From assembly GCA_963762115.1 (NCBI GenBank), contig CAVXJH010000006.1, positions 352,001-416,000 on the forward strand: a DNA stretch of 64,000 nt, written 5' to 3'. The notes beneath the pieces were generated by a model. The model had not been told where the DNA came from and ran no database searches. It was given only the letters and a program-made list of their open reading frames with translations. Source of the DNA: Candidatus Babeliales bacterium (lineage in GTDB: Bacteria > Babelota > Babeliae > Babelales > JANWKD01). Positions 4,602 to 13,295 of the stretch are shown here, in pieces. Made by a program: the position numbers and the translations under genes. The stretch's first letter is position 1; the number at the start of each line of letters is the position of its first letter.

Positions 4602-5392
4602 AAAAAATAGTTATTATATTAGCATTTATTTTTGTTGGCATGGCCAGTGCTATGCAACAACGGTCATTATTAGATGGTAATGATATGCGTAAATATGTAC
4701 ATACTGATCCTGAAGAAATTGCTTATCTAAAAGGTATAGAAGATTTATATAAACGTATTCAGCAACGAAAATCGCATACTCAACAAGCAGTTCAATCAGA
4801 AGGCCCTACTGGTGGGCCCGATCTTGAACAAATATTTTCTTTTCTTAAGCCAGTGCAGAATCATAATGTTTCTCACGCAAAGCCATTAATTTTTGGTTTT
4901 TTACAAGAAGTTTCCGTAGGGAATGTTGAAGAACATCGAGAAGAGTTCAATGAGGAAAGTAATCCCAAAAAAAGAACATTAGAAGAAGCCGCTTCATCTG
5001 ATGAAAGAAATAAAGATTTTCCTGAGGAATCTATTGTCTCAAAGGTAAGCAAAAAGGTTGCAAGAAAAAGCTTAACGGTATCAAAAAATATGGAGATATG
5101 CGGTATTAATGGTTGTAGCGTTAGTACAGCATTGAGTAATGCCATGAAGCGTCATAAAGAAACACTGCATGAGCAAAAGCCATGTCCTTATCCTGGTTGT
5201 GCTTTTCACCATCAATCCAAAGGTGAGTTGCGTGAGCATATTAAGAGGTCTCATCCAGAAAAATTTTGTCCTGTTTGTGGTTATACGCCAAAGGAACGGG
5301 GTAATTTATTAAAACATTTGCAACATGCTAAACATCGCCCTGCTTCGAAGAATCCGGCATCTATTAATTTGGGGAAGGGAAAAATCGCATGA
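4598..5392 (+). CDS. Secreted triple C2H2 zinc-finger protein (array member)
   Basis: Same architecture; N-terminal ~95 aa nearly identical to the next gene. Confidence 0.88.
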   Translation: MKKIVIILAFIFVGMASAMQQRSLLDGNDMRKYVHTDPEEIAYLKGIEDLYKRIQQRKSHTQQAVQSEGPTGGPDLEQIFSFLKPVQNHNVSHAKPLIFGFLQEVSVGNVEEHREEFNEESNPKKRTLEEAASSDERNKDFPEESIVSKVSKKVARKSLTVSKNMEICGINGCSVSTALSNAMKRHKETLHEQKPCPYPGCAFHHQSKGELREHIKRSHPEKFCPVCGYTPKERGNLLKHLQHAKHRPASKNPASINLGKGKIA

Positions 5393-6222
5393 AAAAAATA
5401 TTTATTGTATTGGCATTTATTTTTGTTGGCATGGCCAGTGCTATGCAACAACGGTCATTATTAGATGGTAATGATATGCGTAAATATGTACATACTGATC
5501 CTGAAGAAATTGCTTATCTAAAAGGTATAGAAGATTTATATAAACGTATTCAGCAACGAAAATCGCATACTCAACAAGCAGTTCAATCAGAAGGCCCTAC
5601 TGGTGGGCCCAATCTTGAACAAATATTTTCTTTTCTTAAGCCAGTGCAGAATCATAATGTTTCTCACGCAAAGCCATTAATTCTTGGTTTTTGTTCAGTA
5701 GGAAATGCTGATGAACAACAAGATCGAGCGATTGCTATTCATCAGCAAGAAAAACCAGAGAAAATGCAGTTAAGTTTTTTGTTACAACCAGAAGAAAAAA
5801 GTAACCCCAAAAAAAGAACATTTGAAGAAGCTGCTTCATCTGATGAAAAAAAGAGAGATCTCTTTAATGAATCTGTTGTATCAGATGTTGATAACGTTGC
5901 AAGCCAAGGCCCAATATTGTCAGAAAATAGGGAGATATGCGGTATTAATAGCTGTAAATTCCATGCAGATAAGCGTGGAATTATGAGTATTCATAAAAAA
6001 AGACGGCATACGCAAAAACAATGTTATTGGCCTGGTTGTGCTCTTCTCTGTCAATCCAGAGGTGAGTTATTACAACATATTAATAGATGCCATCTAGAAA
6101 AACATTGTATTGTTTGTGGTTATGCGTCAGAGAAGCGGGGTGATTTATTAAGGCATTTTCGACGCGCTAAACATGGCTACATTTTGAAGGATCCCCCATT
6201 TATTAATTTTAAATTAGGATAA
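5389..6222 (+). CDS. Secreted triple C2H2 zinc-finger protein (array member)
   Basis: Same architecture; fingers CGINSC, CYWPGC, CIVC. Confidence 0.88.
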   Translation: MKKIFIVLAFIFVGMASAMQQRSLLDGNDMRKYVHTDPEEIAYLKGIEDLYKRIQQRKSHTQQAVQSEGPTGGPNLEQIFSFLKPVQNHNVSHAKPLILGFCSVGNADEQQDRAIAIHQQEKPEKMQLSFLLQPEEKSNPKKRTFEEAASSDEKKRDLFNESVVSDVDNVASQGPILSENREICGINSCKFHADKRGIMSIHKKRRHTQKQCYWPGCALLCQSRGELLQHINRCHLEKHCIVCGYASEKRGDLLRHFRRAKHGYILKDPPFINFKLG

Positions 6223-6227
6223 ATCGT

Positions 6228-7046
6228 ATGAAAAAAATATTTATTGTATTGGCATTTATTTTTGTTGGCATGGCTAATGCTATGCAATTACGGTTATTAG
6301 ATGGTAATGAAGTTCGTCAATATGTACATACTGATCCTGAAGAAATTGCTTATCTAAAAAGTATACAAGATATTCAACAAGAAGATGTTCAATCGCGTAT
6401 TGAACAAGAAATTAAATCAAAAGGACGCACTGCTGGACCAGGTATTGAACAAATATTTTCTTTTCTCGTGCCAGTGCAGAATCATAATGATTCTCATATA
6501 AAACCACTAATTCTTGGTTTTTTGCAAAAAGCTTTCGTAGAAAATGTTGAAGAACATCGAGAAGAATGCAATGAAAAAAGTATATCCAAAAAAAGAACAT
6601 TTGAAGAAGCTGCTTTATCTGATGAAAGAAATAAAGATGTTCCTGAGGAATCTGTTGTCTCAAATGTAAGCAAAAAAGCTGCAAGAAAAAGCTCAACATC
6701 AAAAAATATGGATATATGCGGTATTAATGGTTGTCAGTATCGTGCAGCTAAGGATGAAACTATGAATATTCATAAAGGAACACTACATGAGCAAAAGCAA
6801 TGTCCTTATCCCGGTTGTACTTTTCATCGTCAATCAAGAGGTGAGTTATCACAACATGTTGATATGTACCATCCAGAAAAATATTGTACTATTTGTGGTT
6901 ATACGCCAAAGAGACGGTGTGATTTATTAAGGCATTTGCAATTTACTGATCATTCAAAAGACCTTTTTTGTAAATACAAATATTGCAAAGAAAAGCTTTT
7001 AAATATTACTGATTTAAGGCAGCATTACGCAAAATATCATAAATAA
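6228..7046 (+). CDS. Secreted four-finger C2H2 zinc-finger protein (array member)
   Basis: Three family fingers plus an extra CKYKYC...LRQHYAKYH finger. Confidence 0.87.
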   Translation: MKKIFIVLAFIFVGMANAMQLRLLDGNEVRQYVHTDPEEIAYLKSIQDIQQEDVQSRIEQEIKSKGRTAGPGIEQIFSFLVPVQNHNDSHIKPLILGFLQKAFVENVEEHREECNEKSISKKRTFEEAALSDERNKDVPEESVVSNVSKKAARKSSTSKNMDICGINGCQYRAAKDETMNIHKGTLHEQKQCPYPGCTFHRQSRGELSQHVDMYHPEKYCTICGYTPKRRCDLLRHLQFTDHSKDLFCKYKYCKEKLLNITDLRQHYAKYHK

Positions 7047-7069
7047 GTTTTAAAATTTAGGATAAATCG

Positions 7070-7960
7070 ATGAAAAAAATATTTATTGTATTGGCATTTA
7101 TTTTTGTTGGCATGGCTAATGCTATGCAATTGCCATTATTAGATGGTAATAAAGTTCGTCAATATGTACATACTGATCCTAAAGAAATTGCTTATCTAAA
7201 AGGCATACAAAATATTCAACAAGAAAATGTTCAATCGTGTACTCAAGAAAAAATTCAAGCGGAAGAACGTACGAGTGGACCAGGCATTGAACAAATATTT
7301 TCTTTTCTCAAGTCAGTGCAGAACCATGATGTTCCTCATATAAAACCATTTGAGAGTGATTCTTATTTGATTGAATATCAAAATGATGAAAAAAAAGAAG
7401 TTTCTGCGCCATTAATTCTTGGTTTTTGTTCAGTAGAAAATGCTGATGAACAACAAGGTCGAGCGACTGTTGATCGCCCAAAAAAAGGATTGGAGGGTAT
7501 GCAGTTCAGCTTTTTGTTGCAACCAAAAGAGAAAAGTAATTCTAAAAAAAGAACATGTGAAGAAGCAGCTTCATCTGATGAAAAAAAGAGCGGTCTCTCT
7601 AAGGAATCTGCTGTATCAAATGCAAGCAAAAGGGCTGCAAATAAAAGTTCAACATCGTCAGAAAAAATGAAGATATGCGGTATGAATGGTTGTAGCTTTA
7701 GTGCAGTATTGCGTGATACCATTAGGCGTCATCAAGAAACACGGCATGAGCAAAAGCAATGCCCTTATCCTGGTTGTGCTTTTCACTATCAATCCAAAGC
7801 TGATTTTTCGCAACATATTGATAATGCCCATCCAGAACTATGTTGTACTATTTGTGGTTATGAGACAAGGAAACGGTCTTGTTTATTACAACATTTTCAA
7901 AGTATTAAACATCGCAAGAATCTGGCATTTATTAATTCTGGGGAAGGACAAATCGTATGA
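7070..7960 (+). CDS. Secreted triple C2H2 zinc-finger protein (array member)
   Basis: Same architecture; C-terminus HFQSIKHRKNLAFINS shared with 118..969. Confidence 0.88.
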   Translation: MKKIFIVLAFIFVGMANAMQLPLLDGNKVRQYVHTDPKEIAYLKGIQNIQQENVQSCTQEKIQAEERTSGPGIEQIFSFLKSVQNHDVPHIKPFESDSYLIEYQNDEKKEVSAPLILGFCSVENADEQQGRATVDRPKKGLEGMQFSFLLQPKEKSNSKKRTCEEAASSDEKKSGLSKESAVSNASKRAANKSSTSSEKMKICGMNGCSFSAVLRDTIRRHQETRHEQKQCPYPGCAFHYQSKADFSQHIDNAHPELCCTICGYETRKRSCLLQHFQSIKHRKNLAFINSGEGQIV

Positions 7961-8538
7961 AAAAAATATTTATTGTATTAGCGTTTATTTTTTGTAGTGT
8001 GTTGTATGGTATGGAAGAATCAACTGAAGACTATGTTGAAAGAAAATTAAGCGAAGCATTTTCTTTGCTTGATAAAACGATGTTGTTATCACGAGATTCA
8101 AACGGAGCTTCAAAGAGTATTGATGATGAGGAGTTATTTTTAACTGAAGCTGATCTAGTTGATGTATTATACCCAAATACTCCAAAACCAAATACTAAAT
8201 CTTCAAGCAGGGGATTAAAAAGAAGCTTCGAAATGATGATTAATAGTGATCATGTAAGAGATCAAGATTTTGATGATCATAAAGATCAAGATATAAAATG
8301 GCAAGGTAAGGATGAAAAAGAGTGTTCTTTGTGTGGTAAAATTATAGCTAATCTTAGGTATAAAAAGTCGCATGAATTGTGGCATAGGAAAACTGTAGAA
8401 AAAAATAAACGATGTGATGCATGTAAATATGCATTTGAGTCTAGGAGTGGTTATTATTCTCATAATAAATCAACTATTCATAATCGCGTAATTTCCTATA
8501 GAGCATTTAAGGTTGAATCTATTTCTTGTGGGAATTAG
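7957..8538 (+). CDS. Secreted C2H2 zinc-finger protein, second subfamily, prematurely terminated
   Basis: Signal peptide ...VLYG|ME; acidic region, GLKRSFE, two fingers (CSLC..H..H, CDAC..H..H); paralog of 8711..9607, stop where the paralog has GAG. Confidence 0.85.
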   Translation: MKKIFIVLAFIFCSVLYGMEESTEDYVERKLSEAFSLLDKTMLLSRDSNGASKSIDDEELFLTEADLVDVLYPNTPKPNTKSSSRGLKRSFEMMINSDHVRDQDFDDHKDQDIKWQGKDEKECSLCGKIIANLRYKKSHELWHRKTVEKNKRCDACKYAFESRSGYYSHNKSTIHNRVISYRAFKVESISCGN

Positions 8539-8705
8539 AGACATTTTGAGATCAGCGGCGCAAATGCAATGCAGCCAATTAAGAGAGTTTTCATGAAGAC
8601 AAAAAATGTCATAATTGCAGTCACGTGTTTTTGAGTCGATCAGCACTCAACCAGCATAAAAGGGATTGTAAGGATCCGGCATTTATTAATTTTAAATTAG
8701 GGTAA
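8539..8705 (+). pseudogene. Decayed 3' tail of 7957..8538 encoding a further finger
   Basis: Aligns to the 3' part of 8711..9607; after a 1-nt deletion and a CAA>TAA change it reads ESFHEDKKCHNCSHVFLSRSALNQHKRDCKDPAFINFKLG*. Confidence 0.8.
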
Positions 8706-8710
8706 ATCGT

Positions 8711-9607
8711 ATGAAAAAAATATTTATTGTATTAGCGTTTATTTTTTGTAGTGTGTTGCGTGGTATGGAAGAACCCCCTGAGGACTATGATAAAAGAAAA
8801 TTAAATGAAGAAATGGCTTTGTTTGATCAAGCGATGTTGTTATTACAAGGCCAAAACGGAGTTTCAAATAATATTGATGATGATGAGTTATTTTTAACTG
8901 AAGCTGATTTAGTTGACGTATTATATCCAAATATTCCGGAGCCGGATACTGAAGCTTCAAGCAGGGGATTAAAAAGAAGCTTCGAAACGATGATTGATAA
9001 TGAACATGAGAAGGGTCAAAATTTTGATAATCATAAAAATCAAATGGTAGAATGGAAGGGTCTCGATAAAAAAGAATGTTCTTTGTGTAGTAAAATTATA
9101 CCTATGCGGAGCTATCAAAAACCGCATGAACTGTGGCATAGGAGGCGAACTAATGTTTCAGAAAGTGATGGACTTAGATGTGATGCATGTAAATATGTAT
9201 TTGGATCTAGGAATGGTTTTAATTCTCATTATAAGTCAGATGTTCATTACGACGTAATTTCCTATAGAGGATCAGAGGTTGGATCTATTTCTCGTGAGAA
9301 TGAGAGTTATTTTGAGATCAGCGATGTAAATGCTGTGCAGGCCAATCAAGAGAGCCTTCATGAAGAAAAAAAATGTCAATTTTGTTCAGCTTCCATTCAA
9401 TCTTTAGATCATTTAAAAAAGCATTTTAAAGATTCTCATGCAAAAGAAAGATCGTGCCCTATCTGTGGTTGGAAAGTGAAACAATTAATGATTTTGGCAA
9501 AACACTTATTTGAAGATAAGCATGAAGAAAAAGAATGTTATAATTGCAGTCAAGTGTTTTTGAGTCGACCAGCACTTAATCAACATAACAAGCATTGTTT
9601 AGAATGA
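8711..9607 (+). CDS. Secreted five-finger C2H2/C2HC zinc-finger protein, second subfamily
   Basis: Signal peptide ...VLRG|ME; five CxxC...H..H/C motifs including FxSRxALNQH-type helix. Confidence 0.88.
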   Translation: MKKIFIVLAFIFCSVLRGMEEPPEDYDKRKLNEEMALFDQAMLLLQGQNGVSNNIDDDELFLTEADLVDVLYPNIPEPDTEASSRGLKRSFETMIDNEHEKGQNFDNHKNQMVEWKGLDKKECSLCSKIIPMRSYQKPHELWHRRRTNVSESDGLRCDACKYVFGSRNGFNSHYKSDVHYDVISYRGSEVGSISRENESYFEISDVNAVQANQESLHEEKKCQFCSASIQSLDHLKKHFKDSHAKERSCPICGWKVKQLMILAKHLFEDKHEEKECYNCSQVFLSRPALNQHNKHCLE

Positions 9608-11236: not shown

Positions 11237-12220
11237 ATGAAGATGCTTTTTTTTGAAGTTGATGAAAAACAAGAATTATATTTTAAAAAAGCATTTCCGC
11301 ATGATGAGCTTTATTTTTATACAAATCCTTTAACAGCCAAAACAATTCCTGCTCATCAAGCTGATGCGCAGGTGATTTCTATTTTTGTGCATTCGCACAC
11401 AACAAAAACAATCTTAGATCAATTTCCCAAACTTGCCTTGTTGCTTACAAGAACAACGGGATTTGATCATATCGATTGCGTAGCTGCAAAAGAGAGAAAT
11501 ATTTGTGTGTATGCGTTGCCAACCTATGCAACACAAGCGGTTGCAGAATATACTTTTGCATTACTCTTAGCATTATTAAAAAAAATAGTAGTTGCTTGTA
11601 AAAAAAATGAAGAACATGATTATGATCTTTTGCAAGGCACAGAATTGGCAGGCAAGACTATAGGCATTATTGGGCTAGGCATGATTGGAACAGCAGTTGC
11701 GCGTATTGCAAATGGTTTTTCAATGAAAGTGATTGCTTATGATCCATGTTGTAGTTCATCTGAAGTGCCCGTTTCTTTTGTCTCATTAGGTGATCTGCTG
11801 CAGCAAGCCGATGTTGTCAGTTTGCATGTTCCTCTTAATGCTACGACAAAACATATGCTAAATCGTGAATCAATGAAACAATGTAAGCAAGGATCATATC
11901 TCATTAACACAGCGCGTGGTGGTGTTATTGAAACAGCGGCGTTAATTGAATTGTTAGAAAATAACACCTTAGCAGGTGTTGCGCTGGATGTTCTTGAAGA
12001 AGAATTTTTTACTCATCATATTTTAGCATTATTGCGATCTGCTGAGTCAACCGGAGAAGAATGCAAAGTAGTTATGGAAAATATGTATCTTATGCAACAT
12101 CCGCGAGTAATTATTTCTCCTCATAATGCTTTTAATTCAACAGAGGCGTTGGATCGCTCAATGAAGGAAACGGTTGAGCGTATTGAAGCATGGAAAAAAA
12201 ACAGAGAAACTATTTCATAG
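11237..12220 (+). CDS. D-isomer-specific 2-hydroxyacid dehydrogenase (D-lactate dehydrogenase-like)
   Basis: TGFDHID, GIIGLGMIG, SLHVPL, INTARG, LDVLEEE, SPHNAF motifs. Start codon uncertain (ORF opens at 11204). Confidence 0.9.
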   Translation: MKMLFFEVDEKQELYFKKAFPHDELYFYTNPLTAKTIPAHQADAQVISIFVHSHTTKTILDQFPKLALLLTRTTGFDHIDCVAAKERNICVYALPTYATQAVAEYTFALLLALLKKIVVACKKNEEHDYDLLQGTELAGKTIGIIGLGMIGTAVARIANGFSMKVIAYDPCCSSSEVPVSFVSLGDLLQQADVVSLHVPLNATTKHMLNRESMKQCKQGSYLINTARGGVIETAALIELLENNTLAGVALDVLEEEFFTHHILALLRSAESTGEECKVVMENMYLMQHPRVIISPHNAFNSTEALDRSMKETVERIEAWKKNRETIS

Positions 12221-12314
12221 TATGGCATCAGGGGAACAGTGGCTTTTTACTGTTGCTATAACAGCACCTATTATTTCCTGGAAAGAGGTTAGAAAATATA
12301 TTTTAAGAAAATTA

Positions 12315-12344
12315 TTGACAATCTGAAACTAAAAGTGTTAACCT
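12315..12344 (+). promoter_or_regulatory. Putative promoter of the tmRNA-like RNA
   Basis: TTGACA (12315-12320), 18 nt, TG-n-TAACCT (12339-12344). Confidence 0.55.
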
Positions 12345-12350
12345 GAGAGT

Positions 12351-12682
12351 AAGATGGTAGAGAAATCTACTACTCTTGACCAATGGAGGTCAAAAAGCTT
12401 TCCCAAGAATGTTTAAGAAAGCATGCCGAAGTTTGTTCAATTCTTCGTAAAAAAAACAAGCAAATCAGCTAAACGATTATTCTACTAATTTAAGCTGGTT
12501 TGAAGAAAAGTAGAATATTCACGGAAGGTTAACATAGTTTTGTACCGTGAATGTAAAAAACAAATTATGTGGAATATACCCGATCTCGTCTTTAGGAGGT
12601 ATATGGCAATTAAAGACTAAGCATGTAGAGCCTTAAGCATTTTGATGGGGAGAGAAATCTCGTCAAACTATTCTTATCTCAT
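12351..12682 (+). ncRNA. ssrA: tmRNA-like RNA with degenerate tRNA-like domain
   Basis: GCATGCCGA (12421) and CTAAGCATGTAG (12617) helix 2 hallmarks; pk1 CGAAG/CTTCG + TTGTT/AACAA; hairpin TATTCTACT/AGTAGAATA; pseudoknots ATTCACGG/CCGTGAAT + ACATAGTTT/AAATTATGT and ATATACC/GGTATAT + GTCTTTA/TAAAGAC; AATGTTTAAG/CTTAAGCATT. Ends approximate. Confidence 0.72.
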
Positions 12683-12772
12683 ACTTCATTTTAATCTAAA
12701 AAAAAGTGTATAATTATCATATCTGTTCATATTATATTTATATTTTACTATTTTTAGTTCAAAAGGCTTTGG

Positions 12773-13138
12773 ATGAGAAAAAAAATTATTTCAATAATAT
12801 TGTTTTTATCGGTGTTTGGGTGCATGAACCTTTTTGCGGGAAAAACTAGAAAAGCTCCAGCAATTCAGTGGAGAGAGCATACAACAAAAAATTGTAAGCC
12901 GCCATCCAGACAGAAGATGGATAAAAATTCTCCTGTACATCAAAAATCTAATTGCTCTTGTTGTGAAGGAGCTTTTGCTATTATGGGTGGTTTTTTGGGG
13001 GGTGCAGCAGGTTGTTGTTTTGCAGCCCATGAAAGCGCACCAAATATTATTGCCTTAACTACTACTTGTGGGTGTGCAGGTGCGTGTCTTGGCGTTGCTC
13101 TTGTTCAGAGAATTGACGGAAAAAAGAAAAATAATTGA
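12773..13138 (+). CDS. Small exported/membrane protein, Cys/Gly-rich hydrophobic C-terminus
   Basis: Signal peptide; two small-residue hydrophobic segments with Cys clusters. Confidence 0.7.
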   Translation: MRKKIISIILFLSVFGCMNLFAGKTRKAPAIQWREHTTKNCKPPSRQKMDKNSPVHQKSNCSCCEGAFAIMGGFLGGAAGCCFAAHESAPNIIALTTTCGCAGACLGVALVQRIDGKKKNN

Positions 13139-13295
13139 TTTTTTTTCATAAAAAATTTTCATGATTCCTTTTTTATTAATAATAAAAAACCATTTTCGTT
13201 ATTGAAGATGGTTTTTTTGTTTGTTTGACGCTTTTTGATAAAGAGGTAAACTACGTTTATGTATAAAATAGATAAGATTATTTAGAAAGGTGAGT

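Follow-up and report, generated by a model that had tools for sequence, protein, structure and literature searches.

Examination of a 64,000-nucleotide stretch of Candidatus Babeliales DNA (the window; element numbering below follows window positions, and the genome holding it is G000) reveals a second tmRNA-derived copy that has kept the ring of four pseudoknots but lost both the end that accepts alanine and the message for the tag. It is one of nine such tmRNA paralogs, found in seven genomes and on two metagenome contigs, and we estimate a probability of roughly 85% that it is a functional tmRNA paralog that takes no part in trans-translation. The first-pass annotation of this locus had left open whether another ssrA and smpB exist in the genome. 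The contig carries a canonical ssrA beyond the limits of the window (148 bits, with normal ends), and smpB is intact, so the element is not the working tmRNA; the possibility that it is the cell's only tmRNA is thereby ruled out.

Architecture and transcription of the element

The standard tmRNA model (RF00023) matches the element at 12421-12629 (35.9 bits, E 2.9e-12, below the gathering score of 47) over model positions 45-320 only, so the tRNA-like ends are absent, and ARAGORN, in default and relaxed modes, makes no tmRNA call at the locus. Together with the permuted model discussed below, these searches return a body match only, and recover no normal acceptor stem or T arm that the first-pass annotation might have overlooked. 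The element has a fold z-score of -3.66 and adjoins a 2-hydroxyacid dehydrogenase gene on one side and a small unknown ORF on the other, beyond which lie an OmpH/Skp gene and then a peptidyl-tRNA hydrolase gene.

All parts of the element are on the forward (+) strand. The predicted sigma-70-type promoter, noticed already at first pass, has a -35 hexamer TTGACA at 12315-12320 and an extended -10 (TG-N-TAACCT) at 12336-12344, which would place the start at 12351, 7 nt past the -10. The corresponding pattern, TTGAC(A/T)-TGn-TAnnnT, lies before all eight members with upstream DNA, whereas of 5000 windows drawn at random from the genome 3 contain it; a simple promoter scan missed the promoter of the element, and the family pattern recovered it. 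Directly after the -35, the string A(A/G)TAGAAA occurs in four of the eight promoters (L013, L014, L029, L058) and is a possible regulator site.

The predicted fold has a leader hairpin with a GAAA tetraloop (12356-12371), which is the same in the metagenome contig L097 and is matched by GNRA hairpins of similar form in L013 and L084, and a terminator-like GAAA-tetraloop hairpin at the T-arm position (12641-12667); the similar hairpins described earlier at both ends are thus present and of the GNRA type. A local hairpin TTGACC/GGTCAA (12376-12393) captures in the fold the orphaned acceptor 5' strand GGAGGTC (12385-12391), which has A at position 3 and, as had been claimed, pairs with nothing at the 3' end, its partner strand having been lost in G000. 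The former D-loop segment TTTCCC and the helix 2 5' strand follow at 12399-12417, and TTTCCC is predicted in the minimum-energy fold to pair with 12647-12652. There is neither a T loop nor a 3' CCA, also as first described. A further complementarity, between 12345-12354 and 12673-12682 in G000, has a counterpart of different sequence in L097, and is relevant only if transcription begins a few bases before the predicted start.

Helix 2 pairs as previously proposed, at 12408-12417/12632-12641 and, in helix 2d, at 12421-12425/12622-12626, with the 5' strand GCATG of the latter invariant in all nine members. Between its strands come pk1 (12427-12460), which is conserved less well than the other three (cells paired at 70% and 58%, figures partly due to misalignment); pk2 (12465-12515), with the stems TCAGCT/AGCTGG and TTCTAC/GTAGAA, the second of which is 100% paired with 4/6 pairs changed on both sides; pk3 (12516-12569; 98% and 90% of cells paired, both-side changes in 4/8 and 3/5 pairs); and pk4 (12574-12617), which carries AGGAGGT in its loop. 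The GACTAAGCATGTAGA motif and the 3' strands of helix 2d (12622-12626) and helix 2 (12632-12641) close the ring at 12615-12641. The first-pass annotation had counted pk1, a helix 5 analogue and two more pseudoknots; four pseudoknots are present instead, and the supposed helix 5 is pk2, which by alignment, core length and a profile of canonical genes sits directly past pk1. Nothing of a resume codon, tag or helix 5 is left between 12460 and 12465.

This deletion is a property of the family. The core, measured from helix 2d to helix 2d, is 205-218 nt long in eight of the nine paralogs, whereas the 33 canonical cores that could be parsed, out of a comparison set of 40 distinct canonical genes from 50 loci, measure 262-362 nt, and a resume-type context is found in 1/9 paralogs as against 36/40 canonical genes. 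When the paralogs were aligned against a profile built only from 24 canonical cores, their nt 1-46 (helix 2d and pk1) fell on positions 1-45, nt 62-210 of the G082 member (pk2 onward) fell on positions 125-275, and the stretch with resume codon, tag and helix 5 had no counterpart, from which it follows that the 'helix 5' is pk2 and that both tag frames read at first pass are spurious, being frames through pk2. Helix 2 and pk1-pk4 are present in 8/9 members. The exception is the member in G003 (L014:1480-1610, minus strand; 132 nt from G1 to C72), from which pk1-pk3 have been cleanly deleted. It has kept its promoter, an outer stem of 12 bp and helix 2, and pk4 is the only pseudoknot of its 62-nt core.

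The ends of the paralogs likewise depart from those of a working tmRNA. An outer stem starting GGAG/CTCC is seen in six of the nine members, all with A3-U70, and is lost in G000, G001 and L097; all 40 canonical genes have G3.U70. This G3.U70 is described as the identity pair of alanyl-tRNA synthetase (AlaRS) (PMC3968760). The canonical D-loop motif is found in none of the nine, and the corresponding segment is mostly paired in the member folds, with the 3' arm or locally. A GNRA hairpin occupies the T-arm position in 4/9, and 3/9 have a TTC(A/G)A string on the 3' side, in two of them downstream of the stem and in the third without a clear T stem. The suggestion of a highly divergent working tmRNA is not supported, as canonical ssrA genes are present in 7/7 carrier genomes and both the tag region and G3.U70 are missing.

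Evidence of transcription comes from public sequencing runs. Seventeen contain part of the window region 11900-13200, of which 14 are RNA libraries; seven of the latter, from seven studies, were examined in detail together with one DNA run. Contigs on the element were present in 7/7 of these RNA libraries, namely contigs of 187 and 160 nt with 0 differences, of 195, 189 and 158 nt with 4, and of 155 nt with 3, with pieces over 12372-12515 in the RNA run X14; the loose contig ends show further variants of the paralog family. For the flanking genes the RNA runs gave no contig from this organism, with one unrelated 36-nt piece, and the X14 flanks gave short pieces, of which the listed ones have loose ends and fall within the ATP synthase gene. 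In the DNA run 21/30 bins were covered, and missing cover in the RNA contigs was not counted as support. The contigs carry neither strand nor level and could include DNA carry-over, so transcription of the element is likely only. In two of the RNA studies the contigs end at 12647 without a loose end and the DNA contig continues past this point, a weak hint that the 3' end lies there.

Spread, descent and selection of the paralog family

BLAST over 61 relatives found homologs in G001, G003 and G004. An exact motif search of 261 genomes gave 32 places, and among the 19 examined of the 28 further places were two paralogs (G082, G130) and 17 canonical genes. A covariance model from five members then found, outside its training set, the G070 copy (97.9 bits, 205 nt); in its first run, over 151 genomes, this was the one new member and the short G003 copy was missed, and a second run over 40 genomes gave no new member. 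These two runs caught canonical-type matches in about half of the genomes, so divergent members may have been missed, and the other short matches were inspected only in part. A relaxed pattern drawn from seven members is present in 7/261 genomes of the phylum, a count that is circular (the pattern comes from those seven members) and a lower bound. The carriers belong to three families: G000 and three of four others in f1, 2/41 genomes in f3 and 1/10 in f11. G069, a congener of the carrier G070, has a canonical-length match only, and this patchy distribution implies that the paralog is dispensable.

Among 17 matches in a metagenome scan were two paralogs (L084, L097), 11 canonical tmRNAs (nine called by ARAGORN, two partial) and four unrelated sequences. 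A strict paralog pattern run over all species genomes gave four records, two from Ca. Babeliales, which agrees with the Dependentiae affiliation assumed at first pass, and two from an 'uncultured bacterium', and two scans of viral contigs gave no paralog match. RF00023 scored 57.1, 46.6 and 18.2 bits on three of five other members scanned and did not match the remaining two. Besides the canonical ssrA, smpB is present in 6/6 carriers tested (G130 lay outside the test). Neighbouring genes are common only within close kin (G000/G001; G003/G004). The gene next after the G082 paralog codes for an Hsp20 (L029:880-1302), and the G070 paralog is followed by a convergent gene for a ferritin-like (Dps-type) protein and an integrase gene (L058:827-1456); such stress-gene neighbours are not common to the other members.

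The paralogs share with standard tmRNA (RF00023) helix 2, pk1-pk4 in order and the conserved motif before helix 2d, and by this likeness appear clearly to descend from a Babeliales-type ssrA. A tree built from the stretch between pk2 and helix 2 puts eight full members on one side of a branch and 33 canonical genes on the other with support 93/95, which is not starred; the tree leaves out the short G003 member, and it was their likeness to one another by which the members had been identified. Likeness between the G000 paralog and the ssrA of the same genome is only 70%, and with the tree this would fit a single old origin better than recent decay that happened repeatedly.

Comparison of G000 with G001 bears on whether the element is, as the first-pass annotation had offered as one choice, a decaying second copy. 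The paralog cores are identical at 182/209 positions (87%) and the pk2-helix 2 regions of the canonical ssrA genes at 147/168 (88%); the four-fold degenerate sites of three neighbouring genes are identical at 36%, 58% and 43% (pooled 61/138, 44%), and the downstream spacers are no more alike than shuffled sequence (0.53 vs 0.54). Across families, between G000 and G130, the figures are 75% for the core and 77% for ssrA. The paralog core is thus under purifying selection as strong as that on ssrA, which makes decay unlikely for the core; erosion of the ends is, however, seen in the G000 lineage.

Covariation points in the same direction. In a model-fitted alignment of the nine members, both-side changes occur at 22/54 pairs, where shuffles give 12.1 +/- 2.2 (0/500) and slid controls give 5-10; the alignment leans to nested stems, and kin members are not independent. 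The second stems of pk2 and pk3, which are absent from the model, covary as well (4/6 and 3/5 pairs), and pk1 has the weakest support of the four pseudoknots. Together, covariation, tree, core identity, promoter and RNA contigs support the other choice of the first-pass annotation, a repurposed tmRNA whose ring is still under selection.

Unlike standard tmRNA, the paralogs are devoid of G3.U70, T arm, D-loop motif, CCA, resume codon, tag and helix 5, and the element is a second copy beside an intact ssrA. Mitochondrial tmRNA is little more than a tRNA-like domain. The mitochondrial (RF02544), Mallomonadaceae plastid and mycobacteriophage DS6A forms are similarly tmRNA-derived without a tag frame, and the plastid and DS6A forms likewise amount to about the tRNA-like domain alone; the paralogs are the mirror image, with the ring kept and the tRNA-like domain disabled (PMC11915505, PMC4131195). 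The same sources also name, without detail, two possibly tag-less bacterial groups. tmRNA pseudogenes and island-split fragments such as the Carsonella ruddii PC ssrA resemble the paralogs in their unrecognisable termini and tag and are rejected by curated searches (PMC4131195); unlike them, the paralogs have a core that covaries and is under purifying selection, keep the promoter and recur in three families. Curated tmRNA searches are described as rejecting candidates with faulty acceptor stems (PMC11915505), and hence other such paralogs may be hidden. A literature search with most subscription journals outside its scope returned no description of a ring-only tmRNA paralog, and one supplementary file of PMC11915505 contains no Dependentiae, Babelota or Babeliales; the sequence database of that work could hold a G070-like member.

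Possible roles of the retained ring

What has been lost served AlaRS, EF-Tu, the SmpB elbow contact and decoding, and what has been kept is the ring; we therefore tentatively propose, at somewhat less than even odds, that the paralog is a stable non-coding RNA with no part in ribosome rescue that acts through putative binding of ribosomal protein S1, whether free or 30S-bound. The family would then be a new class of ncRNA born from tmRNA, its ring freed from trans-translation to serve as an abundant putative S1/30S ligand controlling translation in an obligate protist parasite, a view that we hold equally tentatively. The paralog may go back to one old duplication of ssrA, after which the mRNA-like domain was deleted and G3 changed to A, and the remnants of D-loop and T-arm may have zipped into a plain rod. 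Such a rod would remove the sites for AlaRS, EF-Tu and the SmpB elbow, so that the RNA would not compete in trans-translation, and with the nuclease-sensitive mRNA-like part gone a stable RNA would be left. The retained ring could then sequester or store S1/30S and damp translation initiation, plausibly in an inactive extracellular stage.

Consistent with this proposal, S1 is reported to interact with the mRNA-like domain and the pseudoknots and not with the tRNA-like domain (PMC1168896), its strongest interaction being with PK2 (PMC3968760), which also contacts uS3 (PMC8363625). Pseudoknots are reported to halt degradation, the mRNA-like part being cut first (PMC4174442), and a related organism has been suggested to pass through an inactive extracellular stage (PMC6561590). 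G000, G001 and G070 each have an S1 gene with six domains; the S1 of G004 has five domains in one frame and a separate piece. Against the S1 reading, the S1 gene of G130 reads in pieces, the G003 member is devoid of PK2, the strongest S1 site, and the mRNA-like domain, which is also bound by S1, is deleted; moreover, a ring without tag and helix 5 is probably unable to wrap the 30S beak as tmRNA does. An HPF-family hibernation factor is encoded by 5/5 carriers tested, which rules the element out as an HPF stand-in. The 6S RNA model (RF00013) matched 0/5 genomes, one of them a non-carrier, in a search whose control matched only 5/14.

An unlikely alternative places the RNA outside translation, either as a decoy absorbing a nuclease or sensor (of phage, toxin or protist host origin) that recognises the ring, or as a signal exported to the host. 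Patchy spread with differing neighbours is typical of genes involved in biological conflicts. The paralogs show such a spread, over three families and with differing neighbours, and the G070 copy has an integrase gene two genes away. In Vibrio fischeri, SsrA is reported to be exported and to act on host cells (PMC7665748), and related Dependentiae are described as host-dependent protist pathogens (PMC6561590). However, the loci have no partner gene in common, the viral contigs yielded 0 matches, and the deletion has removed precisely the mRNA-like part, the target of cleavage that is best known (PMC4174442).

We regard it as improbable that the paralog is a sink for SmpB that tunes trans-translation through the pk1/pk4 site rather than the tRNA-like elbow. 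A contact of SmpB with PK1/PK4 of about 3 nM affinity has been reported in vitro (cited in PMC4174442), the minimal G003 member retains just helix 2 and pk4, and a phage RNA consisting only of the tRNA-like domain is reported to inhibit tmRNA, perhaps by titrating SmpB (PMC4131195); yet the main SmpB site, the D-loop/T-loop elbow, is lost in 9/9 members.

tmRNA has moonlighting roles. Another such role, by antisense pairing, by binding of a DNA-binding protein or by docking to the 16S tail through the GGAGG of pk4, seems to us still more doubtful. A GGAGG is found within the last 50 nt of the core in 7/9 paralogs as against 2/33 canonical genes, and G000 carries a 16S-tail-like anti-SD sequence; but the pk4 GGAGG is absent in G082 and G130, six of its seven carriers are close kin, and it is partly paired in pk4. 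An ATG behind it opens only 1-6 codons with no peptide in common, and both the tag frames and a small peptide behind the GGAGG were ruled out, as no frame is shared across the nine members.

There is a small chance that the element is a decaying ssrA pseudogene, still transcribed and persisting because pseudoknots resist nucleases. The eroded ends in G000, G001 and L097, the large deletion in G003 and the 254/261 genomes without a pattern match would be in keeping with it, and duplicate tmRNA pseudogenes are known (PMC4131195). The core, however, is as conserved as that of a working ssrA with four-fold sites and spacers near saturation, a comparison by which this reading is largely refuted; the compensatory changes, the constant length and the promoter in 8/8 members also speak against it, as does the grouping of the members with each other and not with the ssrA of their own genomes. 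Weakest by far is a permuted two-piece (RF04321, RF01849-RF01851) or otherwise working tmRNA with a missed acceptor stem: a leader hairpin and then seven bases with ACCA superficially recall a T arm and acceptor end, but there is no RF04321 match at the locus, relaxed ARAGORN finds nothing, tRNA-like Rfam families have no match in 12300-12430, no tag region exists, and the ACTCTTG-ACCA feature, whose strands are unpaired, occurs in just 2/9 members (G000 and its near relative L097), in accord with its earlier dismissal as a permuted end.

If the reading of the element as a functional, non-trans-translating paralog holds, tmRNA would here have undergone neofunctionalisation. A ring working by itself as an S1/30S ligand would be the first natural evidence of a selectable function for the ring itself, which is largely dispensable for tagging. 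In tmRNA, pk2-pk4 are described as replaceable or swappable without serious effect on tagging (PMC3968760). Why tmRNA keeps them is an open question, for which the paralogs represent the complementary natural deletion. They thus offer a natural construct for asking what the ring binds, and the 62-nt core of the G003 member narrows the question to helix 2 and pk4.

Canonical ssrA genes and other features of the window

The canonical ssrA of G000 (L003:1501-1956, minus strand) is missed by ARAGORN, and its predicted tag of 40 aa ends in GYC without a terminal Ala, possibly owing to a frameshift or an assembly error. About 130 nt past its 3' end lies an IS110-family transposase gene on the opposite strand (L003:430-1371). 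Very long tags are also predicted for G001 (36 aa), G004 and G130 (33), G003 (29) and G002 (28), as against a median of 15 aa over 36 tags; the long-tag loci besides L003 are L020, L021, L022, L023, L024, L033 and L036. In G004 two canonical ssrA genes, both complete and with different tags (13 and 30-33 aa), are separated by about 1.8 kb (L042:5233-5600 and 7384-7823), and with its paralog this genome thus has three tmRNA-derived genes. In G211 (L038) a duplicated ssrA 5' end lies about 110 nt upstream of a complete ssrA. A YWTTGAM motif, which we take to resemble the boxA antitermination signal, is found no more than 45 nt upstream of 33/40 canonical genes, and three paralogs (L013, L084, L029) retain a similar motif.

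Elsewhere in the window, a tandem array of five ORFs at 5389-9607 codes for proteins with a common N-terminus, MKKIFIVLAFIF, and Cys/His-rich C-termini. One of these ORFs, when scanned, gave weak C2H2 zinc-finger matches below the cut-off. The products of the array look like secreted, host-directed proteins.
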